Assembly (NCBI RefSeq): GCF_900232105.1
Contig: NZ_LT934425.1
Coordinates: 1,770,001-1,802,000, forward strand
Source: Candidatus Kuenenia stuttgartensis
GTDB taxonomy: Bacteria; Planctomycetota; Brocadiia; Brocadiales; Brocadiaceae
Length of the DNA: 32,000 bases
Direction of reading: 5' to 3'
The notes under the pieces were generated by a model that was not told the origin of the DNA, searched no databases, and saw nothing but the letters and a program-made list of their open reading frames with translations. Below, piece after piece: positions 15,874 through 32,000 of this stretch. The position numbers and the translations under genes were made by a program. Numbering within the stretch: the stretch's first letter is position 1; every line of letters starts with the position of its first letter.

Positions 15874-16496
15874 GTGCGGCAAAAAGCAAAGCTTCCGCTG
15901 CTAAGCGTATTGGAGACAGACATTCAAAGCCTGACCGGATTGCGATTGGATAGGGTACGCAGTCGGGAAGAGTCTGCATATTGGAATAGCTTGATTGATG
16001 AGTATCATTATCTGGGCTACAAGCCACTTCCTGGGGCGCAGGCAAGGTATTTGATTAGGTGGGACGGTGGAGATTTGGGGGCGATAGGTTTTTCCGCAGC
16101 GGCATGGAAAGTGGGAGTACGAGACCGGTGGATAGGGTGGGATGCGTTGACCCGCGAGAAGGGTTTACGCATGATTGTGAACAACGCGCGATTTTAGTAT
16201 TGCAAAATATCCGGGTGAAGAATTTGGCATCCCGTGTGCTTTCCCTTTGCGCGAGGCGAATACGAGTTGATTTTTTAGAGCCCTATAACTATGAACCGGT
16301 TCTTTTCGAGACATTTGTGGAAAAGGGTAGGTATTCAGGAGTCTGTTATCGCGCTGCGAATTGGCTTTACCTGGGAGATACAAAGGGAAGAGGGAAGTTA
16401 GACCGTTACCATATGCAGGGTGTTCCGGTCAAGGCCGTTTTTGTGTACCCGCTTGTTTGCAATCCCCGTCAGAGTTTGGCGGAGGTGGTGCAATGA
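15874..16496 (+). pseudogene. DUF4338 (DruA-like) protein gene, frameshifted and possibly 5'-truncated, upstream of a Tn5-like transposase
   Basis: Two ORF-track pieces (15874..16197 and 16059..16496) join into one DUF4338-like sequence: ...YHYLGYKPLPGAQARYLI...AAWKVGVRDRWIGWD...MIVNNARF | LVLQNIRVKNLAS...FETFVEKGRYSGVCYRAANWLYLGDTKGRGKLDR.... The join needs a 1-nt shift at the T-run 16192-16195. The frame is open only from 15838. Confidence 0.6.
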
Positions 16497-17917
16497 GCGA
16501 CTGGGGAAACGAGGAAACTGCAACGGCGGATTTTTCAGATGAGCGATTGAATAAACGGATGCGAGCGTTGCTGGATCGATTGGGTAGCAAGCCCGGAGCA
16601 AGTGTGCCAGCGGCCTGCAAGGGGTGGGATGAGACCATAGCCGCGTATCGTTTTTTAGATAATGAAAAAGTAACCGACCAAAAAGTATTATCATCACACA
16701 GGGACGCAACGCACAAGCGAATGGCGGGGCGTAAAGTGGTTCTCTGTGTTCAAGGCACGACGGAAATGGATTTTACGGGACGCAAACTCAAGGGGGCAGG
16801 GCCGCTCAGTATTCAGGAACGGATTGGTTTTTTCAACCACGTGACTCTGGCTGTTACGCCAGAGCGCCTTTGTCTGGGCGTGTTAGACGCAGAACTGTGG
16901 GTGCGCGACTTTGAAGACCGCAATAAAAATGACAAGCGCAAACAAAAGCCTATCGAGGAAAAGGAGAGTCATCGTTGGCTGGAAGGTTACCGTAGAGTCT
17001 GTGAGTTAAGCGAACAACTCCCCGGCACAATGCTCGTAAGTATTTCAGATCGGAAAGGTGATATCTACGAATGTTTTTGGGAGTCTGTGCGCATGGATGA
17101 GGGTAAGCGGGCGGAGTTTATAATTCGTGGTTGCCATGACCGAAGATTGCCGGAGAAGCTGGAAGATGGATGCTATAAAAAGTTGATGGAGGAGGTATCG
17201 GGAAAACCCATTTTGGGAGAGGTGGAATTCAAAATTCCCAAAACAGAGAACCGTTCCGCCCGAAGGGTGGTACAGTCGGTGAAGGCTTGCCGTGTTCGAC
17301 TCAAGCCTCCATATCGCAAAGGAGAAATGATGCCTGAAGTGGAAATCAATGTGGTGTTCGTCGAAGAGATCAATCCTCCAGGAGGAGGAGAGCCGATCGC
17401 ATGGTTGCTGCTCACCAGCCTCCCCATAGACACCTTCGGGCAAGCGTGTCTCGTGGTGGAATATTACCTTTGCCGATGGCAGATAGAGATGTATTTTAAA
17501 GTATTAAAGAGCGGTTGCAAGATAGAAGAGCGTCAATTGGAGACAGCGGAGCGTATCAAGCCGTGTATTGCTCTTTATATGATAGTGGCATGGCGGGTAT
17601 TGTTTGTTACCATGCTTGGAAGGGAATGCCCGGATTTGCCGTGTACAGCGCTTTTAGAGGATGATGAATGGAAACCCGTGTATATGATTGCCAAAAATGA
17701 AGCTCCACCCGAAACCCCGCCATCGCGCGTAGACTTTACCTTAATGGTATCAAGTCTGGGAGGATACTTAAATCGCAAATGCGATGGCCCACCAGGCCCA
17801 AAAACCATGTGGGTTGGCCTGCAGCGAATGGTAGACTTCACATTGGCATGGAAAGCCTTTGGGCCTGTGCAACCGAAAACACGGAATGGAAAAGATGTGT
17901 ATAAACATAAGGGTTGA
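16493..17917 (+). CDS. IS4-family, Tn5/IS50-like transposase
   Basis: The ORF-track frame is 16361..17917. The likely start is the ATG at 16493, after ggaggtggtgca, overlapping the DUF4338 stop as ATGA. The N-terminus WGNEETATADFSDERLNKRMRALLDRL...AAYRFLDN is Tn5-type DNA-binding. The DDE core includes YYLCRWQIEMYFKVLKSGC, and the tail GGYLNRKCDGPPGPKTMWVGLQRM is Tn5-like. The ends of this IS were not found. Confidence 0.85.
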   Translation: MSDWGNEETATADFSDERLNKRMRALLDRLGSKPGASVPAACKGWDETIAAYRFLDNEKVTDQKVLSSHRDATHKRMAGRKVVLCVQGTTEMDFTGRKLKGAGPLSIQERIGFFNHVTLAVTPERLCLGVLDAELWVRDFEDRNKNDKRKQKPIEEKESHRWLEGYRRVCELSEQLPGTMLVSISDRKGDIYECFWESVRMDEGKRAEFIIRGCHDRRLPEKLEDGCYKKLMEEVSGKPILGEVEFKIPKTENRSARRVVQSVKACRVRLKPPYRKGEMMPEVEINVVFVEEINPPGGGEPIAWLLLTSLPIDTFGQACLVVEYYLCRWQIEMYFKVLKSGCKIEERQLETAERIKPCIALYMIVAWRVLFVTMLGRECPDLPCTALLEDDEWKPVYMIAKNEAPPETPPSRVDFTLMVSSLGGYLNRKCDGPPGPKTMWVGLQRMVDFTLAWKAFGPVQPKTRNGKDVYKHKG

Positions 17918-18003
17918 GGGGTGGGTAAAAAGCCGTTGAAGTGCATGGTGCTTAGGGAATTGGATTTTTCTATTGTACCGTAGCGCTCAGCAGTCTAAAG
18001 TCG

Positions 18004-18060
18004 GCAAAATTGCAGATTGAGGACTGATTTCGTGCTTGTTTGGTTCTGGCTATGCCAACT
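18004..18060 (+). repeat. Diverged second copy of the repeat seen at 1779-1848
   Basis: aaattgcagattgaggactg is identical in both copies. It is followed by a related stretch, atttcgtgcttgtttggttctggctatgccaac here versus attttcatgcttgctgaacactggctttgccagc at 1813-1848. This copy has one GAGGACT unit where the other has three. Confidence 0.6.
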
Positions 18061-18094
18061 TAGGATTAATGAGGACTCTGATATTACATTCCCA

Positions 18095-18119
18095 AATTCT
18101 GGCGACACCATACTTAATT
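18095..18119 (+). repeat. 25-bp inverted-repeat partner (left) of 20421-20445
   Basis: aattctggcgacaccatacttaatt is the reverse complement of aattaagtatggtgtccccagaatt (20421-20445) at 24/25. The motif resembles the right arm of the hairpin repeat family (atatgggaagtgtcccctaatt). Confidence 0.7.
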
Positions 18120-18182
18120 TTGAATACTCCCATTTTTTAGCAATTAGTAAGCCTCATCGTGTTTCCCAATATCAACAAAAAC

Positions 18183-18317
18183 GTAACACTTTAGTTTTTT
18201 GAAAAAACTCTATAAAATTAAGGATTGCGTGTTTTATAGGAAATATAGAAGTATGGACACTTCCTTTATTTTTCCCCCAGATCAAGCAAGAAATATGGGA
18301 TGTGTCCCTAATTCTCC
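18183..18317 (+). repeat. Dispersed hairpin repeat, copy B (~135 bp)
   Basis: It starts with gtaacactttagttttttgaaaaaa. It then has attgcgtgttttat and a hairpin atggacacttcc ... gggatgtgtcccta, whose loop is tttatttttcccccagatcaagcaagaaatat. It is about 80 percent similar by eye to copy C and abuts the 5' break of the ATPase fragment. Confidence 0.7.
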
Positions 18318-18323
18318 AATTCA

Positions 18324-18719
18324 GGAGTTTCACCGGAAGAGAAAAGCACTATAGTCAATAAAGTTCCGAATGCTCTTATGGTAGGCGATGGAGTAAACGA
18401 CGCCCTTGCCATGTCATCCGGTTCCATTGGCATTGCGGTTCTGGGCAGCATAGAGGCGAGCTTGGTCGCAGCGGACATCTATTCAACGAAGGAGGGGGTT
18501 TCTCCTGTTTTAGACCTGATTTTATTAAGCAAAAACACCCTCTCTATTATTAAGAGAAACCTTGTAATTTCGTTTCTTTATAACTTTGCCGGCGGAATAG
18601 CCGCTCTTTTCGGAGGTATCTCGCCCCTTGTTGCGGCAATACTTATGCCTGTAAGTTCTCTCGTTATACTACTTTCTACGGTAACAGGCACAAGATTTAC
18701 CAGAAAATTCAATAAATGA
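18324..18719 (+). pseudogene. 3' fragment of a heavy-metal (P1B-type) P-type ATPase
   Basis: The frame is open from 18312. It reads GVSPEEKSTIVNKVPNALMVGDGVNDALAM...IIKRNLVISFLYNFAGGIAALFGGISPLVAAILMPVSSLVILLS, which covers the hinge motif GDGxNDAP-like and the last two TM helices only. Everything upstream of the hinge is missing and is replaced by repeat copy B. Confidence 0.85.
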
Positions 18720-18727
18720 TAACACTT

Positions 18728-18856
18728 GCAACACTTTAGTTTTTTAAAAAAGACTAACGTGTTACAAAATTGCGTGTTTTATTGAAATATAGGGACGCAT
18801 CCCTTATTTTTCCACCAGATCAAGCAAGCAATATGGGAAGTGTCCCCTAATTCCCT
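18728..18856 (+). repeat. Dispersed hairpin repeat, copy C (~129 bp)
   Basis: gcaacactttagttttttaaaaaa ... attgcgtgttttat ... agggacgcatccc (18791-18803) ttatttttccaccagatcaagcaagcaatat gggaagtgtcccct (18835-18848) aatt. It is a direct repeat of copy B, on the other side of the ATPase fragment. Confidence 0.7.
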
Positions 18857-18881
18857 TTCGCGCGTCGGCAGCAGTGCCGTG

Positions 18882-19244
18882 TTAGCTGCGCTGTTGGCAC
18901 TCAATTGCTTGGATATTTTCTATCTTAAGCTTGCGTGTATCCGGCCAATAAATAGTTGTTACATTAAACGAAAAACGATGCTTATCAAAAAACCGATGAA
19001 ATTCTTTTTTTAACAATGCAAAGATAGTAATTGAGATTCTCTTCGACGCCTTGAGTGGATCAATCTTTAGATTAGAGTATTTAAAATTCCATGCGGTCCT
19101 ACCTTGTAGAAATAGTTGTTCTTCGACGAGGTCAGGCAGGGCCGGAAGATACTTCGCTTCCAGCTCGCGCTTTACCCAAAACCGCACGGTATACAATTCT
19201 TTGGAAAGGATAAGATCATTTTCTTCTGGCATGTCCGTTATCAC
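18882..19244 (-). CDS. Hypothetical protein (120 aa)
   Basis: ORF-track ORF with a GTG start (an ATG lies 4 codons in). I recognise no motif. Its stop lies in AGCTAAC, followed by the small hairpin cggcagcagtgccg. Confidence 0.45.
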   Translation of the reverse strand: MITDMPEENDLILSKELYTVRFWVKRELEAKYLPALPDLVEEQLFLQGRTAWNFKYSNLKIDPLKASKRISITIFALLKKEFHRFFDKHRFSFNVTTIYWPDTRKLKIENIQAIECQQRS

Positions 19245-19563: not shown

Positions 19564-19578
19564 AATCCTCCCTTCAGT

Positions 19579-19650
19579 GCATAACGACCAAGCTCGCCTG
19601 CCGCTATGGAGCGTAGCGGAATAGCGGTCAGGTGGAGTGCTTTGTTAGGC
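19579..19650 (-). other. attC-like structured recombination site (72 bp), candidate a
   Basis: The minus strand reads GCCTAAC-AAAGCACTCCACCTGACCGCTAT-TCCGCTACGCTCC-ATAGCGGCAGGCGAGCTTGGTC-GTTATGC. The ends fit RYYYAAC and approximately GTTRRRY and pair 6/7. An asymmetric unpaired spacer is followed by a long bulged stem and a 13-nt loop. The brnA stop codon lies inside GCCTAAC. Confidence 0.45.
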
Positions 19651-19924: not shown

Positions 19925-20071
19925 TTATTTACCTCCTTCTTCATAAAGTGACAGCTCCGACTGACTTGCCTTGCGACAACTGATAATACGAATATTTGAA
20001 CTTCGCTCAGTATAAACCACTACCAACACATGACCCTTATCAGAGCTTCCGATGTCAATATTCCTCGGCAT
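19925..20071 (-). pseudogene. 5'-truncated BrnT (DUF497) ribonuclease toxin
   Basis: This 48-codon ORF falls below the track cutoff. MPRNIDIGSSDKGHVLVVVYTERSSNIRIISCRKASQSELSLYEEGGK matches only the C-terminal half of BrnT (…VV.TeR...IRIISaRkA...E...Y). The N-terminal ~45 residues are absent. Its stop lies 1 nt before the brnA ATG. Confidence 0.65.
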
Positions 20072-20734: not shown

Positions 20735-21228
20735 ATCTTTTATTCTCCTCGTTGAGTTTTATTAATCTATCATATTTATCGAGTAGTCATGGCAATAGTC
20801 GTTGATTCTAATTCCTACCGCAGTTACTTTGATTTGGTATTCTGCCATCCAAAACTATCTCAAAATAACTGAAATCCACAACAATGACACGTCTCTTTGC
20901 CGTACTAAAACATTTATGAATATGGGGAAAGCAACCTTTTTCCTCTTTATTGGTTGAGTAACTGTTCTATTTCCTTTTCCAGTTCTTCTTTTCTTACTGG
21001 ATCAATAGTTTGTTGCCATATTTTTAAGAGGTTGCTTGATTCATAAATTTTTTGCCGTTCTTCGGGAGTAACTTCAATAGTATCGAGCAACGATTTTGCC
21101 TCATTTTGCATAATTTTTGGAAAAAACTTTAATACATCAAAGCTATCAAGACTAGCCTCTAGCGTGCTTTGGGCAAGAAGGACTTTTGCTATAGCTTTGC
21201 TGGCATCGGAAATTTTTTTCTCGGCTTG

Positions 21229-21735
21229 TTAGGCATGTTCTAAAGCCTTTTTCGCATCTTCACGCTCTTTTTTTGCTTCATTATATTGCCAATAAGCAAC
21301 AACTAAAAGAAAAATAGAAATGAACGTCGCAACATGATTAATATACTGGTTAAACCACTGGATACGCTTTTTCTGATAGTGCCCACAGTGAAAGCATATC
21401 TTTGCATTTTGTTTAATTTTCTCTTTGCAATAATAGCAGTCTACATTTTGATTTTCAGTAATTTGTTTTTTGTGATAATTGGTGTATCTATCAATCGGAT
21501 ATCTAATCGCCATAATAATCACAAAGACAACGATACCTGAAAATACTCCACCGTAATTATTGCACGTGATCTCAAGGAAAGCAGCGAATTCTGGCCTACT
21601 ATGAATTAAATAGTACAATAAGTAATCTCCAGGATAAAAACAAAGCCACTTAAACCACAACCACACGTCACTAATTGTGGTTGAGCCGCTACAGTTCATA
21701 TCCGCTACGAACCCCCATTCCCTTGGATCGGACAC
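21229..21735 (-). CDS. Membrane protein with a cytoplasmic zinc ribbon; the frame continues past an in-frame TAA to 20947
   Basis: 168-aa ORF with a GTG start after aggagacataataa. It has two TM helices, CYYC-x11-CFHC, a third TM helix and the start of a coiled coil. After the TAA at 21229-21231 the same frame stays open for 93 more codons (QAEKKISDASKAIAKVLL...EKEIEQLLNQ), ending at 20947. Confidence 0.55.
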   Translation of the reverse strand: MSDPREWGFVADMNCSGSTTISDVWLWFKWLCFYPGDYLLYYLIHSRPEFAAFLEITCNNYGGVFSGIVVFVIIMAIRYPIDRYTNYHKKQITENQNVDCYYCKEKIKQNAKICFHCGHYQKKRIQWFNQYINHVATFISIFLLVVAYWQYNEAKKEREDAKKALEHA

Positions 21736-21858
21736 TTATTATGTCTCCTATTTACGATCCACATATAAAAGTTTTCAAATTACGGCATATCGCTCATAAA
21801 TTATTTTGAGCAATTTTTCTTCCATTTCCTTGTTAATTTTCTTCGTGATCACAAAGAC

Positions 21859-21931
21859 TCCTAACTTTAAATTATGGGGTTTTGGTGGAGCGCCAGCGCA
21901 ACCAAAATCCCTCTTGAACAATTTGTTAGAT
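21859..21931 (-). other. attC-like structured recombination site (73 bp), candidate b
   Basis: The minus strand reads ATCTAAC-AAATTGTTCAAGAGGGATTTTGGT-TGCGCTGGCGCTCC-ACCAAAACCCCATAATTTAAA-GTTAGGA. The ends fit RYYYAAC and approximately GTTRRRY. AAATT/AATTT pair after a 3-nt bulge, followed by 6 extrahelical nt and an 11-bp stem. The loop shares CGCT..CGCTCC with candidate a. It begins 12 nt after the SIR2-like stop. Confidence 0.45.
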
Positions 21932-21942
21932 ATCAAATTTTC

Positions 21943-22836
21943 CTAATAATAAAGTTTTGAAAACCAGTCTTGAAGGTCTTTCAATGAGTCCGTTTTATAA
22001 TGCTCTCCATTTCTTAAGAACTTACCTTCAATAGAAACAGAATACTTCCATTCAAAAGTCCTTCTTGGCCAGATAGCTATAGATGATTTCCAAAAATCTG
22101 AATTAATAATACTATGCCCAAGAGGGAAATAATTTTTCCAACATTTAACAATTTCCTCTTGTTTTTTTATATCAATAATTTCCGCATGACAAAACTGTTT
22201 GAAATTATTTGTTGGTGTAGGATTCCAATTTTCAAGTAAAAGCTGACGAGCATTAAAATCTGTGGCTGGTCCAGAATAACCAAATATGGTTATTTGAAAT
22301 GCTTCTTTTAATTTTTCTGTAACCTTTTCCCAATCTCTTTTTATTAAATTATCATTAGTATAATCTTTATTTTCAACAGGATAAAATAGTTTGCTTTGTT
22401 TTAATGTTGTATTACATATTGTGCATATCTCAGATGGTACACCTAAAATATCATGCTCATTGCATGTTGCAAAAGCTACACAACCATGTAAAAAACGTAT
22501 ATCAGGTAACTTTGCTACATCTTTATTTCTTCTATAAGCTTGGATTAGGAATGGATCCCAATTAAATGTGGCAATAATGTCTTTTGAACGAAGTCCTAAT
22601 ACAAGATAATCATATATCGTTGGATAATCAGGTAAGTGCAAACTTTCAAAATAAGATACAATTGTTTTTTCAATTTTTAATAATTGAGAAGAATAAATGT
22701 CTTTTTGTTTAAGCCATGAAAATTGGCTTTCAAAGTTTCCAGGTGGCGGGCAAGCATTTTCCATTAACTCCTTCCACTCTGCAACTACCCCTTTTATATT
22801 GGGTAATTCGTCTTTCTCTTGTAACATTTTAACCAA
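21943..22836 (-). CDS. SIR2-like (SIR2_2/DUF4917-type) protein
   Basis: 297-aa ORF with a TTG start at 22836 or an ATG at 22827. The motifs occur in sirtuin order: DIIATFNWDPFLIQAY (TTNYD-like), IRFLHGC (HG), a four-Cys module C-x6-C-x13-CTIC in the position of the sirtuin zinc ribbon, and ITIFGYSGPATD (GYS..D). The N-terminal GAGxS NAD-binding loop is not evident. The gene is visibly AT-rich; a sampled line is about 28 percent GC. Confidence 0.5.
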   Translation of the reverse strand: MVKMLQEKDELPNIKGVVAEWKELMENACPPPGNFESQFSWLKQKDIYSSQLLKIEKTIVSYFESLHLPDYPTIYDYLVLGLRSKDIIATFNWDPFLIQAYRRNKDVAKLPDIRFLHGCVAFATCNEHDILGVPSEICTICNTTLKQSKLFYPVENKDYTNDNLIKRDWEKVTEKLKEAFQITIFGYSGPATDFNARQLLLENWNPTPTNNFKQFCHAEIIDIKKQEEIVKCWKNYFPLGHSIINSDFWKSSIAIWPRRTFEWKYSVSIEGKFLRNGEHYKTDSLKDLQDWFSKLYY

Positions 22837-23310: not shown

Positions 23311-23380
23311 AAATATAGGGACACTTCCCTTATTTTCCCAAACATGATCACGCAAGCAATATGGGAAGTGCCCCCTAATT
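23311..23380 (+). repeat. Dispersed hairpin repeat, copy D (hairpin module only)
   Basis: aaatatagggacacttccc ttattttcccaaacatgatcacgcaagcaatat gggaagtgccccctaatt. The stem is 13-14 bp and the loop is conserved with copies B and C. It lies between the helicase-nuclease stop and the NDT-like gene start. Confidence 0.7.
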
Positions 23381-23438: not shown

Positions 23439-23735
23439 TCATGACTTGGGGAAAATCTCTCGTTCCTCCAGCGCACGCCAAAGCCCTTTTAGCGCGTCAT
23501 CTTTGTTAGAGTAGAAGGCCGATTCTCTGACGCGGAAGAACTCCCAGCCGCACCGCTTTAATTGCAGCTGGCGTTGCATATCCTCTTCGTATCGGTTGGG
23601 GCCATGCCAATGGTCACCGTCACACTCGACTGCCAGGCGCGCGTTGCCTCCTTCTATAACAATATCGATTCGCTTGCCAGCGATTTCATACTGCGGAATG
23701 ACGTTGAAACCCCGCCTCGCCAACTCCAATGCAAC
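23439..23735 (-). pseudogene. Helicase-nuclease gene, piece 3 of 3: C-terminal DUF559/Vsr-like (REase_MTES_1575-type) endonuclease domain
   Basis: LELARRGFNVIPQYEIAGKRIDIVIEGGNARLAVECDGDHWHGPNRYEEDMQRQLQLKRCGWEFFRVRESAFY is a DUF559-type nuclease pattern. The frame joins piece 2 exactly once IS 23736-25587 and one ATGCAAC copy are removed. Confidence 0.85.
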
Positions 23736-25587
23736 GGATGTTCACCCCAAGTCAAAAAACAAAAGTGCCGTAAAAGCCTTATATTTATTGACTTTTACGC
23801 CGAACAGCAAGCTTTTTTCTAGTGACTACCCGTATGTTCCGGCTTGGCAATACTTCTGGCAACTTTATCTGTAATGCCTCTAATAATTCATGTGATTGTT
23901 GCCGCGGACGCGGGATCTTCTGGCAACTAGCTTTTTGGCCTTTGATTGTTACTTCCATCGAACAAATGGTCGTCAATTGTGCGAGACCTTCCTCTACCGT
24001 CAAGTCAAAATTCTTCCACGCTCTGCGCAGCCTTCGAATTATCATGTACGCAAGCATTACCACAAACACATGTCCCCGTGTACTATCCTCCTTTCTTACA
24101 TACACCGGACGAACCTCCAAATTCACCGTCTTACAGTCCCGAAACGCCTTCTCCACTTCCGTTAAATCCTTGTATCGTTCATGTACCAGATTGGTATCCG
24201 CCTCGTTCTCCTCAAGATCAGTCTTGATTGCGTAACAACCATCAAGGTATGATGCCTCCTTTAATGCTTCCTCATCTCTCTCTATCTTTAGCGTCCTATC
24301 CTCTTCTTTTATCTGCACCCACCCATCAAGTTTCAATCTCGTTAGCCTTTCCCTTGTTGTTTCCAGTGCCTTCGATACTGACGACTTAGGATGTTCCTTC
24401 AGATAACTGTTCTTCTTCGCGATGTATTTCTCTATACTCTGTAATTTTGATACACGGGTCTTTGACATCTCTTCCGCCCTTACCGGATTGCGCCTCAGAA
24501 TATATCGAACCTCATCATCCTTTATCTCGCAGAGCTTTTCTTCGAACAATCCTAATTGCAGTATCCCTTTATTTATCAACGACTCTATCTGCGGCTTGGT
24601 TATCGCCGTTATGTAATGAAACCCTTCCGGTAAACTTTCGATTTGCACCGTCTTGATCATCCCACGATCTCCTACAATCGTTACATCTTTGCATCCAAAC
24701 CGCTCTAATACCTTCTTTACCTGAGATTCAAAGGTCTTCGGATCCTGGGTGTTGCCCCTAAATACTTCTGTTGATACCGGCTCCCCGGATTCATCACAAA
24801 GCATACCGATCACTATCTGTTTTTTCCTCTTTTTGCCGTCACGATTATACCCGTACTCACCAAAATGATTCGACTTCCCCTCTAAATAACTGCTCGTCAC
24901 GTCATACAAAAACAACTTCGGCTTATTGCCTCCTCGTCTTAACTCAAACAGCTTTCGCTCTATCTTTGCCTGATTCTCTGACAACCATGACAAATTATCG
25001 TACAGATTGTTCTCGTCAAACCCACGCTTCATATCCAGGACGTCACCCGCAGCATGTATCTGCGCCAGCCTTACTGCAGACAGTCTTGACCCCTGGCCTA
25101 TTACCCTTGCCATTACTTGCCAAAGCGCCAGCTTTCCTTCAAAGTCCTTTCCCAATGCCTCTTCTATCCCTAATTCCTTTGCCACTTGGTACACGCTCCA
25201 CGCTGCTCCCACAGACAAACCCTCATGGAGTTTCACCGATTCTGACAATGCGCCCAATGCACAGAGATCGTCTTTATGTGCGAGTGCAAGTCTTATCGCT
25301 TCAATCTCCAGGGGAGTGCAATTCGACAGATTCGCAATGGTGCGTTTCTTGACCTTCCCATCCTCACGGTACGATTCCCGCAGAAGGGTAGATCGATAGA
25401 TTTTTTTACCGGATTTTGACTTGTTCTCTACAATATGCATGTCCACCATTGTACAGATAACAACCATTATCCGTCAAGTATATTGTCGGATAATAACAAT
25501 ATATTAGTGACTACATATTTATTAAAAATACAGCCTTAACAAACTATGTATTAAGCACTTATGCGTTTTGGCAGGGGTGAACATCCG
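23736..25587 (-). mobile_element. Second IS1634-family element (1852 bp) inserted in the helicase-nuclease gene
   Basis: The ends are ggatgttcaccccaagtcaaaa (23736-) and the reverse complement of ...ttttggcaggggtgaacatccg (-25587), sharing a GGATGTTCACCCC core. A 7-bp direct repeat ATGCAAC lies at 23729-23735 and 25588-25594. Confidence 0.85.
23785..25467 (-). CDS. IS1634-family transposase (different lineage from the 578-aa one)
   Basis: 560-aa ORF. The likely true start is MHIVENKSKSGKKIYRSTLLRESYREDGKVKKRTIANLS at 25440, an IS1634-type N-terminus. A DDE region follows. Confidence 0.85.
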   Translation of the reverse strand: MVVICTMVDMHIVENKSKSGKKIYRSTLLRESYREDGKVKKRTIANLSNCTPLEIEAIRLALAHKDDLCALGALSESVKLHEGLSVGAAWSVYQVAKELGIEEALGKDFEGKLALWQVMARVIGQGSRLSAVRLAQIHAAGDVLDMKRGFDENNLYDNLSWLSENQAKIERKLFELRRGGNKPKLFLYDVTSSYLEGKSNHFGEYGYNRDGKKRKKQIVIGMLCDESGEPVSTEVFRGNTQDPKTFESQVKKVLERFGCKDVTIVGDRGMIKTVQIESLPEGFHYITAITKPQIESLINKGILQLGLFEEKLCEIKDDEVRYILRRNPVRAEEMSKTRVSKLQSIEKYIAKKNSYLKEHPKSSVSKALETTRERLTRLKLDGWVQIKEEDRTLKIERDEEALKEASYLDGCYAIKTDLEENEADTNLVHERYKDLTEVEKAFRDCKTVNLEVRPVYVRKEDSTRGHVFVVMLAYMIIRRLRRAWKNFDLTVEEGLAQLTTICSMEVTIKGQKASCQKIPRPRQQSHELLEALQIKLPEVLPSRNIRVVTRKKLAVRRKSQ

Positions 25588-27422
25588 ATGCAACATCAAT
25601 CTCAAACCAACTTTCAAATGGCGCGGGGGGATTTACAACTCGTCGATTATCTTGAAAGGTGCGCCGCTCAAGCTCATTACGCTCAATTCCTGCAATCTGT
25701 TGTGGTTTCGTGTTCTCGAAGAAACTAAGGAGTCGTCGACGAAGACAGGAGGCGCTGAGTTCGTCACAAGTGACAGAGTGGAACAAAATCATCTGGTCGC
25801 GGGCACGGCTGGCGGCAACATTGAACCGCCGTTCGTCCGAAGCCTTCGTTAGAGGGCCAATTCTTTCATTGTTGGCCGCAACAAGCGATAGCAACATAAT
25901 GTCTCGCTCATCACCCTGAAAACTGTATGGATTACCGCAGACCAAATGCCGCTGCTCCATTTCCTCGGCGCCCAACTGTTCAAGCAATTGGTTCTCAATC
26001 AAAGCCGCCTGTGCTTCGCCCTGAAGCACAACCACACCCATCGACTTGTCGTCATACCTGGTGTCGCCACACAGTTCGACGATCTTTTTAACGATGGCTT
26101 CGGCCTCAGGGCGATTGATCGTCCGGTTGTATGAACCTTCGCGATACCCTCCATTTACAAAAACAAGTTCAAGGGGAGCTAATCGGTTAGGCCCATATTG
26201 CCTCAAGGGAATCAACGGCGTATCTGAATAGCAAAGGTCATTGCTGAAACGAATAATCTCCGGCATGCAGCGGAAGTGCTCGCGTAGGGTAATTCGTTGC
26301 GTTCCATAGCGAAGTTTACCGTGATCAAACAGGCTGCTTTCGACATCGAATGACGACTTAAATTGGAAATCATGTAGGAATTCCTCCATCAAACGATGCA
26401 CGGCATCTCGAGGCAAGCCTACAGCAGCCGGGCTGATCTGCTTATCATCGCCAACAATTAATACCTTCTTGCCTAGATAAAATAGAGGAAGTGCCTCTAC
26501 TCCACATTGCGATGCCTCATCTATGATAATGACATCAAACATACCAGGTATGGGATCCACCGTGTCCCAAACTCGGTGGAGAGGCATAACCCATGCCGGA
26601 ACCGCCTCACGGCACTCATTGAGGTGCTGTTGAGCTTCACGCCTGTGGCGTGGCGCGTGTTTTCCTGTGCCTTTACCAAGCCGCCTCATAGACTGCTGCC
26701 AGGCTTCCATATGGCGTCGATGATTGCTATTGAGTCGGGAAAAGCAAAATGACCAGGCATGGAGCGAGGCGAGTTTAGCTATAATGGCGTTGATCTCGTC
26801 CTCGATCTGTTTGGCGTGCTTGGCGAGGGCAGGGATGTCCTCCTGCCGTATGTATTCCTCAATCCAATATTGCGCCTGCGCCCAATGCCAAGCGTTTCCA
26901 ATTTGTTGAAGTCGCTCATCCCAATATGGCTCGTCACAGGTTCGCATCAATTCATCCGTGAGACGTGGGAGTCGGTGGCTCATTTCCGAGAGGTATTCAT
27001 CCATCTTCTGAAGGCGCTGACGCTCCTTTTCCAATTCCTGAATCTTGCTCGCGGCATTCGCGAATCCATCTACATTGCGGTCACGAATCGCGTGTAGCAA
27101 TTCGTTCGTTACCGGATGTGCGTTGCCCATGGCGGCAACGTACGATACCGGAGCCTCAATGCTTTGTATTTCTTCAGCTACAAGCCGCTTGCGGAGACGG
27201 ATATGCGCAAGGCCGCATGACGCGATTATCCTTTCAACCTGAGATTCGTCAGCCCAAAAGGGTTCGCTTATAGCCTGAAACTGGCGTATGATCCCACGGC
27301 ATTCTCCAATGAGCGTTTCAAGCGACAAGGCATTTTCAAGAGCGTCACACAGTGATTTGAGCGCAGTCAATTGTAGAGCATAAGGGCCTTGAATCTTATC
27401 GGTTCGCCCCACCCAGAACCCC
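25588..27422 (-). pseudogene. Helicase-nuclease gene, piece 2 of 3: SF1 helicase motifs II-VI
   Basis: The ORF-track frame is 25559..27412. Its last 9 codons are IS-derived and its 'M' is a GTG. It carries VIIIDEASQ (II), LIVGDDKQISP (III), REHFRCMPEIIRFSN (IV), FQGDERDIMLLSLV (V) and RRFNVAASRARDQMILF (VI), as in the Upf1/DNA2-like AAA_11/AAA_12 type. Confidence 0.85.
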
Positions 27423-28806
27423 CATAAGCGCTAACTTGTTTTATTGACAAATTTTATTCATCATGGTATTTTTATGTTAATTATCCCGCTAATCACTCTA
27501 TAGGAGGATAAAGCCATGATGAGAGAAGATTGGGATCTTCTAAGAACTTTCTTCCCAAACGATTGGAAAAGTTTAGCCGTTGATACAAATGCTTTAAAAG
27601 GCTTGCGCAAGGATAAATCTGAAGAAAAGCTTCTTCGAACATTATTAATTCATTTAGGATGTGGCTATTCATTGCGTGAAACAGTAGTTCTAGCCAAGCG
27701 TGCTAACTTAGCAGATTTATCCGATGTTGCCTTATTAAAGCGATTAAAAAAGAGCAAAGAATGGCTATATAAATTATGTTTATCTTTATTCCGTGAGCGT
27801 GGCCTCCAAATTAATAAACGGAATAATTTTCATCTTCGCTTATTTGATGCAACAACAGTAAAGGAACCTGGGAAAACAGGAAGTCTTTGGCGCATTCATT
27901 ATAGTATTGAGGTTCCTTCATTATCTTGCGATTTCTTTAAACTTACGGGAACTGAAGGAGAAGGCACAGGAGAATCTTTTCGGCAGTTTCCGATGAAAAA
28001 AGATGATTATATTATAGCTGACAGAGGTTACTGTACTGGCCAAGGAATTCATCATGCAACAAGGAAAGGCGCTTATCTTAGCGTTAGAGTTAATTCGCAA
28101 TCTCTACGGATATTCGGCGAAGAAAAGAAACCCTTTCCTTTATTGAAAGAAATCCAATATTTAAAAAGACCCCTTGCTATAAAATCATGGAACGTTTTTA
28201 TTCCAAACGTTGATAATACTGAATATGTCAAAGGTCGTCTTTGTATAATACGCAAAACAGAAGAAGCCATTAAAATAGCTCATAAAAAACTTAAAAGACA
28301 TGCAAGCAAAAAGGGCATTGAACTAAAACCGGAGACCCTTATTTATGCCAAGTACGTAATAGTATTCACAACGTTTCCTGAAAATCAATTTACCGCTTTT
28401 GATATCTTAGAATGGTATCGAGTTCGATGGCAAATTGAACTGGTCTTTAAAAGATTTAAACAAATAGCACAATTTGGACACTTACCTAAATACGATGATG
28501 ATAGCTCAAAAGCTTGGCTTTATGGCAAACTATTCGTTGCTCTTTTGACAGAAAAACTAATAGATTTTGCTACGTCTTTTTCCCCCTGGGGATACTTCAT
28601 TGTCAAGCAAGAAGACTAAAAGCAAATGGCGTGAATTTGCTTTTATGCTTAATCAAGTAAAACGGGCTATAGAACCAGCGTTATCATTACAGGAAGTTCT
28701 TAAGTGCTGGAATGACATTGCTTGTTCTTTAGCAGAAAATACAAGAATCCGAAAAACACAGATATCAAAATACTTCGAGCATACCTAAAACAAGTTAGCG
28801 CTTATG
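27423..28806 (+). mobile_element. IS4-family insertion sequence (1384 bp) inserted in the helicase-nuclease gene
   Basis: It has perfect 21-bp terminal inverted repeats: cataagcgctaacttgtttta (27423-27443) and taaaacaagttagcgcttatg (28786-28806). An 11-bp direct repeat CCCAGAACCCC lies at 27412-27422 and 28807-28817. Confidence 0.9.
27516..28788 (+). CDS. IS4-family DDE transposase, with a frameshift near its 3' end
   Basis: The 367-aa ORF 27516..28619 carries DDE_Tnp_1-type motifs (LEWYRVRWQIELVFKRFKQ). The +1 frame is open from 28564 to 28788 (…SKWREFAFMLNQVKRAIEP…). The only homopolymer in the overlap is T5C5 at 28577-28586. Confidence 0.75.
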
Positions 28807-31114
28807 CCCAGAACCCCCACGCCTTCTCACACTCGATCCGGACATGCAATGCATCGGAAAGATTTGAAAAATGTTCGACAGCGGAACAAGACCGTCCTCC
28901 AATACGCACAGTCTTGATTACATGGAGGCGCTCTTTGACCTCTTTGGGCCGAAATGGGCCCCAACCCAGCTTCCCTCCACCCTCCATGTGCTCTTTCAGT
29001 TTTCTGGCATCTTCTCGTAGCGTACTGATATTGGTATTGTCTGGGAAAACAATACTTGTATTGTCAGCGATTGTGACTACAGTTTCGACTGATGCAATAG
29101 CATCTCCCGTGATACGGAAAAGCTCGCGCCACAAGGATGAATTACCTCCCAAGATATCGCGTAATGCATCTGCCATCCATGAATGGGGCGACGCCATCAT
29201 CCTTCTTCGTGCGTCGCGAAAATTGGAGAAAGCGTCACGAATCGTTTCGATGGTCGCGAAATTGCCCTTTGATATCAGATCGGCGATACGTTCATCTGCC
29301 CCGATTACCGAGTTGCTTTCGTCCTCAGTCGCTTTCACCTCGTTCTCAGCAAGATTGGCCAACTGTTCTGTGGAAGGCAAGGCATTTGGCCATTCAAGGC
29401 TCAATTCTTGACGCTTTTCTGGTGCAAAATAACGAATGTCCTCAAGAAAATCACGCAAATCGCTGGCGGATAACTGACAGGTCTTGTCCAAGGGGATGGT
29501 GTCCGCGAACCATTCGTAAACGCTTCTGTCACGGTTGACGGCCTCCGCTATTCGGGCTGCCGTACCTCGATATGTTCCGTCCGCAATGGATTGGGATTGG
29601 GTTTCGGATTCCCTGATATCGCGGAGCCGTCGATTAACCTTGGCTTTCTCCTGCCGGAGGCGTTGGAGTCGATCTTCTAGTTCCGTGCGCTCATGTTTAG
29701 CCCGATCCTCTTTCCATTCATCATTCTTGCGAAGTATGCCGCCGACGCTGGATTCCAAAGATCGCCGCTCCTCAAGACCGCTGCCAAGCAAGTTGATGCA
29801 GAGAGGGCGTAATTCTTTCGGGATAAGTCCTTCAAGTACCTGAAGAGCACGCGGCGTCTTGGCGGTGATAAGCGTTCGCTGGCCAGTGGCGAGCAAATGG
29901 CAAATGAGATTCGCGATAGTATGAGATTTTCCCGTACCGGGAGGCCCCTGCACAAGAACGCCATTTTCCGCACGAATCTTGTCAACGATACGTCGTTGAT
30001 CTTCGTTCGATGGCTTTGGGAAGAAAACTTCTCCATCGAATGCGCTGCTTGATTCTTCTAAACCATCGCCCGTTTCGTAGTCATTCTTGTTGGAAATCTC
30101 GGCAAGGTCCGCGAATAAGTCAGGGATACCTTCGGCATTTTCGATCCGCCCCTTGATCCGTTTCAAGGTTTCGGTAAGACCCTTTGCGGAGCGCTTTCGT
30201 AGGATCAAAGCGGGAGCATATTCGACAATTGGCTTCGCTGATGCACGGATGCTTTTCGCCGCCAAGGAGTCGTCATACTCACCTTGGGAGTCGATCGAAT
30301 GCACCAACGCCTTAAGCACGCTTTCAATGCCCCCTTTTTCCCATGGATCGTCTTCTTCTCCTGCCAACGAAGACTTCGCAGTTTCTTCGGCGCGCGGCGG
30401 TTGTTCCTCTACATCCAACATGTCGAATTCTGGCCGGAGTTTTGCCCCTTCGGTATGAGGCCGAACGGTGAATTTACCCAGATGAGCTTCAAACTCCAAA
30501 ATGGCATCCGCGACAACCAAGTGACGTCTGACGCGCTGCCCAGTGGGCGTCTGCCATGTAAGCAGACCCAACCCAAGTACGAGTTCGTATTCCTCGCCAA
30601 GCCTGAGTTGCTCTTGATGAATGGCAAAAAGCTCGGAATAGACACGGTGGATTTTTTCCCACGCATTGTGATCTTCCGTCCATGGTAGCCACTTGTCTTC
30701 AACATAACGTTCCCATGCCCGCAGAACTTCGGGATGTTCGCCAAGGCGTTCGGTGCGTGGCATGGTTTCCGGCTGATGCGATCCTTCGCGCCAGTCGGGA
30801 TTTTGGACTTGTTGGGTGATTTCCGGGAGGAGTTCCGGCAAATCACTCTTATTGCAGAGCGCCGACTGGTTAAGCCAGTCTCTGCATTGAATGGGAATGG
30901 CATGCAATTCTGGCTCGCGCCGGTTTTGCACTTCCAGCCATTCATCCATCTCATGTTCCTCATCGCTCCCCCATGCCTGCGTAAAGCACCCCCGCTCATG
31001 TGGAACGTTTGATACCCAAAGGACATTCTCGTATTCGGCAATGTCGCTGATCAGCTTCGCGCGAAGTAAAGCAAGTCGTGTCAAATAGTCGAGAAGCCTA
31101 ACGGCTTTCTGCAC
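28807..31114 (-). pseudogene. Helicase-nuclease gene, piece 1 of 3: N-terminal region plus Walker A
   Basis: The ORF-track frame is 28802..31114, with a GTG start and a last codon that is IS-derived. It carries VLVQGPPGTGKSHTIANLICHLLATGQRTLITAKT (motifs I/Ia), then a long coiled-coil-like insert. The frame stays open upstream to the IS boundary at 31150. Confidence 0.85.
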
Positions 31115-31150
31115 CCTATGGCTATCTGCCTGTTGATCGTTTAAGAGTTC

Positions 31151-32000
31151 CCTAGCGTGAGTTTATCACAAAATAAGGCATGAAGCAACGTAACATAAAT
31201 ACAGTCAATGCGTTAAGCACAACATCAATTGTATACACTGAGTCCTTGAAGTTTCAGCCGATGTTTGTGGAAATCCATAATGCCTAACGCATTCATCAAC
31301 AGAGATTCCTTGTCGGACATTTCTTCCAATTTGTAGGTAGCCTTAACTCTCCCTCTGGCCTTTGTTTCTTCAAGCATAGCAGAAAGCCTTATATTATTAA
31401 GGGTGTCTAACAGGGTATCTAACGTTCCACTAAATTGTGCGTGCGCTTTTGCCTGATACCACACAATCGCCGCCATTAGGTATCCGAGGACGCAAATAAA
31501 AAAATGCACCCTGATTTTCTGATCCGTCCAGTGAAATTGCGGTTTTAAAGCAAGGTGATAGGGGTTCTTGAGATTTCTAAAGGCATGTTCAATTTTTGAT
31601 TGCCCATAGTAGGCTTTTATAATGTCCGCGGTATCCCAATCGTGATGGTCTGTCATAAGAATCCTGAACCCCAGTTCCCCTTCTATTTCTTCGAGCTTTT
31701 TCTGGTCGATTGAAAAATTCAATTGAAACTTGCCTTCAGATACCTCTTTTAACGACCAATCGATAACATCCTTCGCAAATTGACATTTCACTACACTTCT
31801 TATCGTATCCTCCAGACCCTCTTTGTCCCGCATCTTTCCCTTTGGATTACACAGATGCTGCTGTAAGAGCTTTAACTGATGTTCTGCCTTTTCCAGAGAC
31901 TGAGACATTCCCCTTAATTGCCCAACCTTTAATTTCTCGGAAATAAATACGACAACGGTTCTTTCCTGCCCCCAAATAACCCGTTTGTCATGGTACACCT
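31151..32000 (-). mobile_element. IS1634-family insertion sequence, copy 2 (inverted, runs off the window)
   Basis: From 31151, ctagcgtgagtttatcacaaaataaggcatgaagcaacgtaacataaatacag... matches the reverse complement of the right end of copy 1 (15660-15752). Confidence 0.9.
31225..32000 (-). CDS. IS1634-family transposase, C-terminal part (copy 2, partial)
   Basis: The ORF-track ORF 31225..31998 matches the last 257 residues of the 578-aa transposase at 13943..15679 exactly, apart from its artificial first M. Confidence 0.9.
   Translation of the reverse strand, partial: VYHDKRVIWGQERTVVVFISEKLKVGQLRGMSQSLEKAEHQLKLLQQHLCNPKGKMRDKEGLEDTIRSVVKCQFAKDVIDWSLKEVSEGKFQLNFSIDQKKLEEIEGELGFRILMTDHHDWDTADIIKAYYGQSKIEHAFRNLKNPYHLALKPQFHWTDQKIRVHFFICVLGYLMAAIVWYQAKAHAQFSGTLDTLLDTLNNIRLSAMLEETKARGRVKATYKLEEMSDKESLLMNALGIMDFHKHRLKLQGLSVYN

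Follow-up and report, generated by a model that had tools for sequence, protein, structure and literature searches.

Hhe is a single-gene anti-phage system that joins a helicase to a Vsr endonuclease (Gao et al. 2020; PDLC02194 in PADLOC), and it is triggered by phage DNA-metabolism genes or functions and not by one protein (PMC11482910). Phage defence genes are also known on integron cassettes (10.1101/2024.07.02.601719). Larger cassettes are reported to recombine less, and one with attC sites 4 kb apart was reported as not recovered (10.64898/2026.03.17.712381). Here we describe a helicase-nuclease gene in a stretch of 32,000 nucleotides (nt) from Candidatus Kuenenia stuttgartensis (contig NZ_LT934425.1, positions 1,770,001 to 1,802,000), hereafter the window, in which coordinates count from the first letter. 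The gene is cut by three insertion sequences (IS), and its relatives in other phyla are carried as a large integron gene cassette.

We consider it probable that this is a recently killed gene for a 1489-residue helicase-nuclease with a history as a cassette, whose intact product would have been a stand-alone immune effector. The pseudogene is real but ordinary; the unexpected result is an oversized, phylum-hopping cassette and an unnamed protein family.

Results

Three insertion sequences interrupt one helicase-nuclease gene

A preliminary description of this region had rebuilt a protein of 1473 codons from three minus-strand pieces split by two IS, with no other visible damage. The three open reading frames (ORFs) exist as described, at 28802..31114 (770 amino acids), 25559..27412 (617 amino acids) and 23439..23729 (96 amino acids), and the public assembly GCA_900232175.1 lists the pieces as separate proteins. 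However, we found that the gene is cut by three IS, not two, and lies in four pieces. The segments within the window and the elements that interrupt them are as follows.

23439..23735, minus strand: helicase-nuclease gene segment 3, codons 1392-1489 and stop
23736-25587, minus strand: IS-1, 1852 bp, IS1634 family, transposase at 23785-25467
25588..27422, minus strand: helicase-nuclease gene segment 2, codons 782-1393
27423-28806, plus strand: IS-2, 1384 bp, IS4 family, transposase at 27516-28619
28807..31151, minus strand: helicase-nuclease gene segment 1, codons 4-785 of 1489
31152..32000, continuing past the window end, minus strand: IS-C copy B, IS1634 family, full length 2012 bp

Segment 1 encodes the N-terminal domain, Walker A (GPPGTGKS, residue 406) and the first half of a helical insert. 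Segment 2 continues with the remaining half of the insert, followed by motif II (IIDEASQ, residue 1081), RecA2/AAA_12 and the start of the nuclease, whose MTES_1575/Vsr-like core (GKRIDIV...AVECDGDHWH) is encoded by segment 3. Past IS-C copy B, outside the window, are the first 11 nt of the gene.

The ends of IS-2 are perfect 20-bp inverted repeats (CATAAGCGCTAACTTGTTTT), and its insertion duplicated the 11-bp target CCCAGAACCCC, which now stands at both 27412-27422 and 28807-28817. IS-1 is flanked by the 7-bp duplication ATGCAAC at 23729-23735 and 25588-25594; an equally valid reading places the element at 23735-25587, in which case the CGGATGTTCACCCC repeats are perfect and the duplication is 6 bp long. 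The perfect direct repeats claimed earlier for the ends of both elements are therefore in place. Compared with the NCBIfam profiles NF033592 (cut-off 115 bits) and NF033559 (cut-off 100 bits), the IS-2 transposase scored 161.5 bits against the former, which assigns it to the IS4 family, while the IS-1 transposase and the fragment in IS-C copy B scored 308.9 and 117.5 bits against the latter, which assigns both to IS1634. When IS-2 and IS-1 were removed in silico together with one target copy each, a single frame without stops resulted, joined at the slashes in ...ECEKAWGFW/VGRTDK... and ...WFEIDVA/LELARR... as had been proposed.

An uninterrupted sister allele, looked for in related genomes as the preliminary description had advised, was found by a genome scan in the metagenome-assembled genome (MAG) Candidatus Kuenenia sp. 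Bin_40 (L007; our locus numbers carry the prefix L). It is collinear with the restored gene, is syntenic downstream and differs from it at 68 of 4470 nt (98.5% identical). It contains exactly one copy of each target at the IS-1 and IS-2 sites (one GTTGCAT and one GGGGTTCTGGG), which independently proves both in-frame joins.

The third element lies at the 5' end of the gene. The assembly GCA_900232175.1 (L085), found by exact match to the 770-residue piece, is the same genome as the window, is identical to it along 13,199 nt and continues 10 kb past its end. There the far junction of IS-C copy B reads ...GGCGAAAAGTT ATG GGG A/CTAG, then CGTGAG..., while the intact L007 allele has ATGAGGA CTAG GGAACTC with a single CTAG. 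The CTAG at 31152-31155 is either the tip of the element or its target, and the gene is cut between codons 3 and 4. IS-C copy B thus parts the first 11 nt (ATGGGGACTAG) and the promoter from the body of the gene, leaving the native start and promoter 2 kb off. The 849 nt of copy B within the window are 100% identical, in inverted orientation, to 14904-15752, which belong to a second copy.

13741-15752, plus strand: IS-C copy A, 2012 bp, complete, with CTAG at each side

The IS-C terminal repeat CTAGCGTGAGTTTATCAC occurs at 13741, 15752 and 31152. No position of 2012 differs between copies A and B, and the third insertion is therefore very recent. The two copies are inverted relative to each other, lie about 15.4 kb apart and bracket the whole island, and recombination between them could invert it. 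Such an inversion is not needed to account for the lost start, which is found directly past copy B in L085. Metagenome scans for the IS-C junctions gave 0 matches, the first search pattern having differed from the real sequence by a single-nucleotide polymorphism.

The true product is 1489 amino acids long (MGTRELLNDQQ...), not 1473. Homologues start with M-x-T-R about 4 codons ahead of the stop met by the window frame, and the GTG at 31114 is an internal codon that aligns inside all homologues. A truncation of about 145 residues at the N terminus, considered for homologues of about 1620 amino acids, was ruled out: their extra length is a C-terminal tail, and at the 5' end only 11 nt and the promoter are really missing. 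Most homologues carry an acidic linker, a small winged helix-turn-helix (wHTH)-like C-terminal tail and an attC site. Both the window allele and the L007 allele lack all three, and in both the similarity to full-length relatives runs exactly up to the last codon and no further, which indicates that tail and attC were lost in both Kuenenia alleles. The damage is thus wider than two insertions, although all catalytic motifs are intact in the restored sequence. The gene had also been described as GC-rich at 55-58 percent. That value is wrong, as the restored gene has a GC content of 0.515, but it does stand well above its flanks (0.38-0.42; the housekeeping part has 0.416 and the adjacent array 0.379) and is compositionally foreign.

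The anammox Kuenenia genome is known for IS activity. Within the window 3 of 5 IS copies lie inside the gene, which makes up about 40% of the non-IS island DNA (binomial P for at least 3 of 5, about 0.32), and we rejected the three insertions as a sign of targeting or selection. A GC-rich block at 16059-17917 (0.50), in which a DruA-domain (PF14236) fragment overlaps a Tn5-like transposase (Tnp_DNA_bind, Dimer_Tnp_Tn5), is apparently a further IS, possibly frameshifted.

Predicted architecture of the restored protein

In Pfam the restored protein matched AAA_11 (over the Walker A region), AAA_12 and MTES_1575/DUF559, in that order. The MTES_1575 match (PF18741) scored 98.3 bits against a gathering score of 38.2 bits and covered positions 1-96 of the 96 in the profile. 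These three domains had been expected from the sequence. DUF4011 had been expected with them, but neither the full protein (E<=0.01) nor its N-terminal 401 residues (E<=10) gave a Pfam match to it, and the N-terminal domain, the insert and the tail gave nothing meaningful in Pfam at E<=10. The motifs GPPGTGKS (406), IIDEASQ (1081) and NVAASRARD (motif VI, 1316) mark the helicase. Across 33 homologues there is hardly any variation in motifs I, II and VI or in the nuclease D/E-x-D-x-x-H. The nuclease stretch GKRIDxV...ECDGDxWH is nearly invariant among homologues too.

A sequence search of the PDB (phmmer, E 1e-10) matched only the Sen1, Upf1, IGHMBP2 and DNA2 cores. An AlphaFold2 (AF2) model of residues 369-1483 of homologue P0003 (predicted local distance difference test, pLDDT, 70.7; predicted template modelling score, pTM, 0.37) retrieved SETX, Sen1, IGHMBP2, Dna2 and Upf1 with Foldseek at E 1e-9 to 1e-6. 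In this model the insert, borne on RecA1, comprises about 550 residues and is all-helical. The N-terminal domain of about 365 residues has no Pfam annotation; a model of the N-terminal 430 residues reached a pLDDT of 65.8, with 70-94 in its core, and had no fold match in the PDB. Taken together, motifs and models indicate an SF1B Upf1/Sen1-like helicase and a Vsr-like MTES_1575 endonuclease in one polypeptide, in agreement with the order first proposed: an N-terminal region of about 380 residues, a Upf1-like superfamily 1 helicase with an insert between motifs Ia and II, and a Vsr/MTES_1575 nuclease. A DUF3320 wHTH has been described for MTES_1575 proteins, and the tail arrangement of most relatives is similar (PMC3710099).

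A sister family of Hhe and ProA

The best named match of the protein was ProA (NF058533.1), at 217.6 bits (E 2e-64) against a cut-off of 1500 bits, with residues 362-1466 aligned to profile positions 643-1705 of 1903. Hhe (NF042953, cut-off 2000 bits) aligned to residues 1041-1466 only and scored 135.1 bits (E 2e-39). In PADLOC the protein matched PDC-S37, MkoA/C and Hhe (Hhe 94.8 bits). The PDC-S37 profile, which has 1550 positions and no curated cut-off, gave 199 bits (E 2.6e-59) for residues 882-1466 against profile positions 760-1340 only. A literature search for the names ProA and PDC-S37 found no source paper. Five distant family members scored 190-240 bits against ProA and likewise fell far under the ProA and Hhe cut-offs. 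Since the window protein and the five distant members all miss these cut-offs, we place them, on profile scores, in a separate unnamed sister family of Hhe and ProA.

A search with the N-terminal domain returned 1313 clusters at 50% identity, in which the domain is nearly always N-terminal in full-length proteins of about 1450-2030 amino acids. Relatives at 27-34% identity occur on 289 plasmids. Viral contigs nearly lack the family (8 loci among 2.9 million), and a phage origin was rejected on that ground. In one distant member, P0176 (1987 amino acids), a full sigma-70 C-terminal domain (RpoD-like, also MzaA-like) replaces the wHTH tail.

Relatives travel between phyla as an integron cassette of about 4.95 kb

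The preliminary description had held that this architecture recurs in defence islands. This is only loosely right: the protein scores below the Hhe and ProA thresholds, and what actually carries the family is the integron, in the form of a gene cassette. We found relatives in 78 species-level genomes from more than 15 phyla, at amino-acid identities of 73-80%. Between unrelated hosts the nucleotide identity was 80-96% by megablast, from about 15 nt before the ATG to 35-65 nt after the stop, and the gene kept a GC content of 0.50-0.56 whether the host flanks were at 0.37 or 0.65. Many contigs consisted of the helicase-nuclease gene alone. The 5' boundary is G/TTAGGC (the slash marking the boundary), 8-21 nt before the ATG (L007, L085, L010, L012, L017, L055 and L073), and the homology starts there. 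The 3' end consists of GCCTAAC (the R'' box, with the stop codon inside it), an imperfect palindrome and GTTAGGC, which is a canonical attC. The constant GC, the gene-only contigs, the sharp homology edges and the boundary motifs together pointed to a gene-sized mobile unit.

An attC was found after the gene in L012, L073, L015, L035, L031, L019, L044, L010, L076 and L014, and likewise in L022, L058, L063, L029, L011, L028, L032, L068 and L001. As single-stranded DNA its bottom strand folds into an R-box stem, bulges and an L-box (-21.7 kcal/mol, z -4.2), with pairing in 80% of cells compared with 24-38% in slid controls and compensatory changes in seven pairs. A covariance model for attC sites detected attCs right after the gene in eight loci outside its training set and more in the flanks, nearly all on the strand of the gene with one exception (L014, 6047-6112). 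Full-length IntI (TIGR02249, cut-off 265 bits) was encoded 2.5-3.2 kb upstream in an Acidobacteria MAG (L012, 466 bits) and in Prosthecochloris vibrioformis DSM 260 (L076, 386 bits). A truncated intI lies next to the gene in L002-L005, in divergent orientation in L002, and tblastn found IntI matches in L031 and L028. We conclude that the family is an integron gene cassette, 4948-4951 bp in length, promoterless and with one ORF. The default attC clustering distance of IntegronFinder is 4 kb, which the spacing in this cassette exceeds, and such cassettes may therefore be under-reported.

Another context was observed in one subgroup. Upstream of the gene in L006/L071, L008, L016, L020 and L027 lies a conserved gene of about 75 codons for an excisionase-type HTH protein (TIGR01764, MAD1-like); the conserved stretch comprises about 300 nt at 72-81%, with a different context downstream. 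The family therefore also travels as a two-gene form that is not a cassette.

The Kuenenia copy heads a decayed array

The Kuenenia copies (L007 and L085) keep GTTAGGC 8 nt before the ATG. No attC belonging to the gene was found between its stop (23439) and the next ORF, and intI was not found in the window, L007 or L085. Beyond the gene lie two attC sites.

21853..21931, minus strand: attC, directly after the stop of a 297-residue ORF and in the same orientation as the helicase gene
19573..19650, minus strand: attC, canonical, R'' GCCTAAC ... R' GTTATGC

The first, which was outside the training set, scored 28 bits with the attC model R1 (E 3e-6) and its L-box stem had a z of -3.3. In sequence type the second matches the attC found behind the helicase gene in other phyla. 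Small ORFs, among them HicB-like and BrnT toxin-antitoxin genes, occur around and between the two sites, and the array adjoins the housekeeping genes rodA, pbp2, mreBCD, lnt and moeA. From these features we read the helicase gene as the head of a decayed cassette array without an integrase, and comparison with L007 shows that the whole array is more decayed in the window genome than in the sister MAG.

Several differences between the two arrays were recorded. The 297-residue ORF (21943-22836, minus strand) has an in-frame 117-nt deletion at 22812/22813 relative to L007 15035-16054 (339 amino acids), which removes ...VVILGAGASRAAMPQGDKYGKK...; because an attC follows it, this ORF is itself a cassette. 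We do not assign it to SIR2, which was read by eye from the motifs GAGAS, TFNWD, LHG and IFGYSG, as Pfam, NCBIfam and PADLOC gave no match. At about 20062-20064 the window is missing 1.25 kb that L007 holds at 17912-19163 (a ParE-like toxin and a second HicAB copy), and the 262-residue ORF of L007 (16245-17033) is split into 168 and 54 residues at 20947-21735. Palindromic repeats some 65 nt long (TAGGGGACACTTCCC ... GGGAAGTGTCCCTA), in which a stem of about 14 bp carries a loop of about 30 nt, lie between the cassette ORFs and just past the helicase stop, at 18252-18312, 18786-18852 and 23316-23380 in the window and at 14475-14553 and 18180-18251 in L007. They may be repetitive extragenic palindromes or resemble miniature inverted-repeat transposable elements. 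We ruled them out as attC sites, as they have no AAC/GTT boxes and no match to model R1.

The inactivation is recent

The preliminary description had called the inactivation recent, and the comparison with L007 bears this out. The restored gene has no frameshifts or stops, and the IS elements are absent from the sister allele. Codon differences between the two alleles comprise 39 synonymous and 29 non-synonymous changes, a ratio of non-synonymous to synonymous rates (dN/dS) of about 0.24. When polarised with 120 outgroup proteins, the derived replacements were about equal, with some 10 in the window lineage and 7-8 in L007. Together the low ratio and the similar numbers of replacements indicate that the alleles diverged mostly under purifying selection, and that inactivation is therefore recent, as the identity of the two IS-C copies also indicates.

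The dead allele is the common one in public data. The 770-residue piece occurs on two long NCBI contigs and on contigs of about 2.4 kb that end at the IS boundaries, from at least 20 sequencing runs. Elsewhere in the family, the relatives in L027 and L032 (about 1490 amino acids) still encode the tail past a premature stop, an IS701-family element splits a homologue on a Deinococcus actinosclerus plasmid (H1, CP029776.1), and frames are broken in several MAG copies. The helicase-nuclease gene seems to decay commonly, although some of the cases may be sequencing errors.

Discussion

The account that we favour for this locus is as follows. Candidatus Kuenenia took up the cassette at the head of an array that now has no integrase. 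The acidic linker, the wHTH tail and the attC were lost before the two known Kuenenia alleles diverged, and this loss immobilised the cassette. Three different IS copies then inserted cleanly in the window lineage, with duplications of CTAG, 11 bp and 7 bp. IS-C parts the promoter and start from the body, IS-2 Walker A from motif II, and IS-1 the helicase from the nuclease core, and no functional product can be made. The intact protein was probably a stand-alone effector of the Hhe/ProA kind, directed against phages or other mobile genetic elements (MGEs). Its helicase would load on aberrant or foreign nucleic acid, move 5'->3' along it using ATP, and deliver the Vsr-like nuclease or license it for cutting, while the N-terminal domain and the helical insert would serve sensing and regulation. 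We infer this immune role because of the homology, the response of Hhe to phage DNA-metabolism functions, and the integron and toxin-antitoxin context.

Several points weigh against this account. The anti-phage role of the family is predicted from homology and context and not from experiment, the whole-protein scores fall below the cut-offs of ProA and Hhe, and the N-terminal domain is different from theirs. Upf1-like helicases act on both DNA and RNA, and either could be the substrate here. The inter-domain arrangement in the AF2 model is unreliable at its pTM. The Kuenenia copy has neither an attC nor a nearby integrase, so its cassette origin is deduced from the 5' GTTAGGC, the neighbouring attCs and the relatives. 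Finally, three IS in one gene are statistically unremarkable and therefore do not point to selection for inactivation.

The conservation of the gene between phyla over its whole length (73-80% in amino acids, 80-89% in nucleotides), non-catalytic parts included, and the many metagenome contigs that hold it alone could also mean that it is primarily selfish and helps its own cassette to persist or spread, either through addiction or because alleles that lack the cassette are cut. Size normally lowers cassette recombination (10.64898/2026.03.17.712381), and the success of a cassette of 4.95 kb needs explaining. However, we found no sign of a recognition site, of homing-type insertion or of an addiction partner, IntI and attC are enough to explain the mobility, and several copies are decayed or IS-interrupted without apparent consequence. 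A strong defence benefit would explain the spread equally well, and we regard a selfish gene as unlikely.

A housekeeping DNA-repair enzyme, merely damaged by IS here and no part of defence or conflict, appears a slightly poorer candidate still. The Vsr-like nuclease fold and Dna2/Upf1-like helicases are both used in repair, and relatives are named 'very-short-patch-repair endonuclease' by JGI. A repair role fits poorly, however, with a sharp-edged integron cassette that is found patchily in more than 15 phyla, in copies about 80% identical at the nucleotide level, that has a GC content not adapted to the host, and whose neighbours are toxin-antitoxin genes and other cassettes. The gene is also dispensable in cultured Kuenenia lineages, its disrupted allele recurs across the sequencing runs, and the closest named relatives of the protein are anti-phage proteins.

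That the split gene is alive, its 770-, 617- and 96-residue pieces being expressed from IS-borne promoters and reassembling or acting separately, is very improbable. In its favour, all three pieces are open frames that have a GTG or TTG in frame close to the 5' end, and GCA_900232175.1 calls them as genes. Against it, Walker A (406) and motif II (1081) are encoded by separate pieces, the break at 1392 falls inside the nuclease fold, the starts that the pieces would use correspond to internal positions in every homologue, none of the 78 genome loci has the gene naturally split at these points, and the native start and promoter lie 2 kb off.

A recently killed cassette gene for a candidate immune effector therefore remains the reading that we prefer, and it corrects the annotation to one 1489-residue gene with three IS in place of three separate 'proteins'. 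It also dates the order of decay in an anammox genome. More tentatively, and with a little less than even confidence, we propose that this unnamed family, sister to Hhe and ProA and comprising 1300 or more clusters at 50% identity, has as its dominant clade a single-ORF cassette that in a very recent spread reached more than 15 bacterial phyla and at least one archaeal MAG, and whose size, past what is believed to recombine efficiently and past the default attC spacing of integron software, has probably caused cassette surveys to miss it. If so, it would be among the largest and most widely travelled integron cassettes, and its product a candidate new stand-alone helicase-nuclease immune protein. 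A helicase-nuclease of 1600 amino acids carried as a single cassette bears on the maximum size that IntI can move and on how much defence capacity environmental integrons hold. An intact allele lies inside a complete integron in the cultured green sulfur bacterium P. vibrioformis DSM 260, the catalytic residues are easy to recognise, and neither the N-terminal domain nor the helical insert has a known structural relative, all of which makes the family suited to experiment. Nitrosococcus oceani ATCC 19707 carries a full-length cassette as well.

Comparison with known systems

Hhe shares with the present family one long polypeptide in which an SF1 AAA_11/AAA_12 helicase is followed by a Vsr/DUF559-type nuclease. 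The resemblance by sequence is confined to RecA2 and the nuclease, and wHTH-type tails follow in most members of the present family. Hhe has an N-terminal DUF4011 region, whereas the present family has instead the domain of about 365 residues for which the PDB holds no fold match; it is moreover carried as an integron cassette, and its defence role is a predicted one. The likeness to ProA is longer, since the alignment spans Walker A, the helical insert, RecA2 and the nuclease, and is the same in the five distant members. The first 640 or so positions of the ProA profile have no counterpart here, however, nor does the N-terminal domain found here have one in ProA, and the present protein is about 300-400 residues shorter.

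The Upf1-like SF1B helicases (Sen1/SETX, Upf1, IGHMBP2, Dna2, nsp13 and ZNFX1) share the core fold and motifs (Foldseek E 1e-9 to 1e-4), at about 20% identity and in the core only. They have no counterpart of the helical insert, the N-terminal domain or the Vsr-like nuclease. Dna2 does carry a nuclease, but it is a PD-(D/E)xK nuclease placed N-terminal to the helicase, whereas that of the present protein is Vsr-like and C-terminal.

Bacteriophage-resistance integron cassettes (BRiCs) and the defence cassettes of chromosomal integrons share with the present cassette a promoterless, defence-type gene between G/TTRRRY and an attC (10.1101/2024.07.02.601719), as well as arrays that hold toxin-antitoxin cassettes near IntI. 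The present cassette differs from them in devoting about 4.95 kb to a single ORF. Its hosts belong to environmental phyla (Planctomycetota, Chlorobiota, Acidobacteriota, Nitrospirota, Desulfobacterota and others), and not to Vibrio or clinical plasmids.

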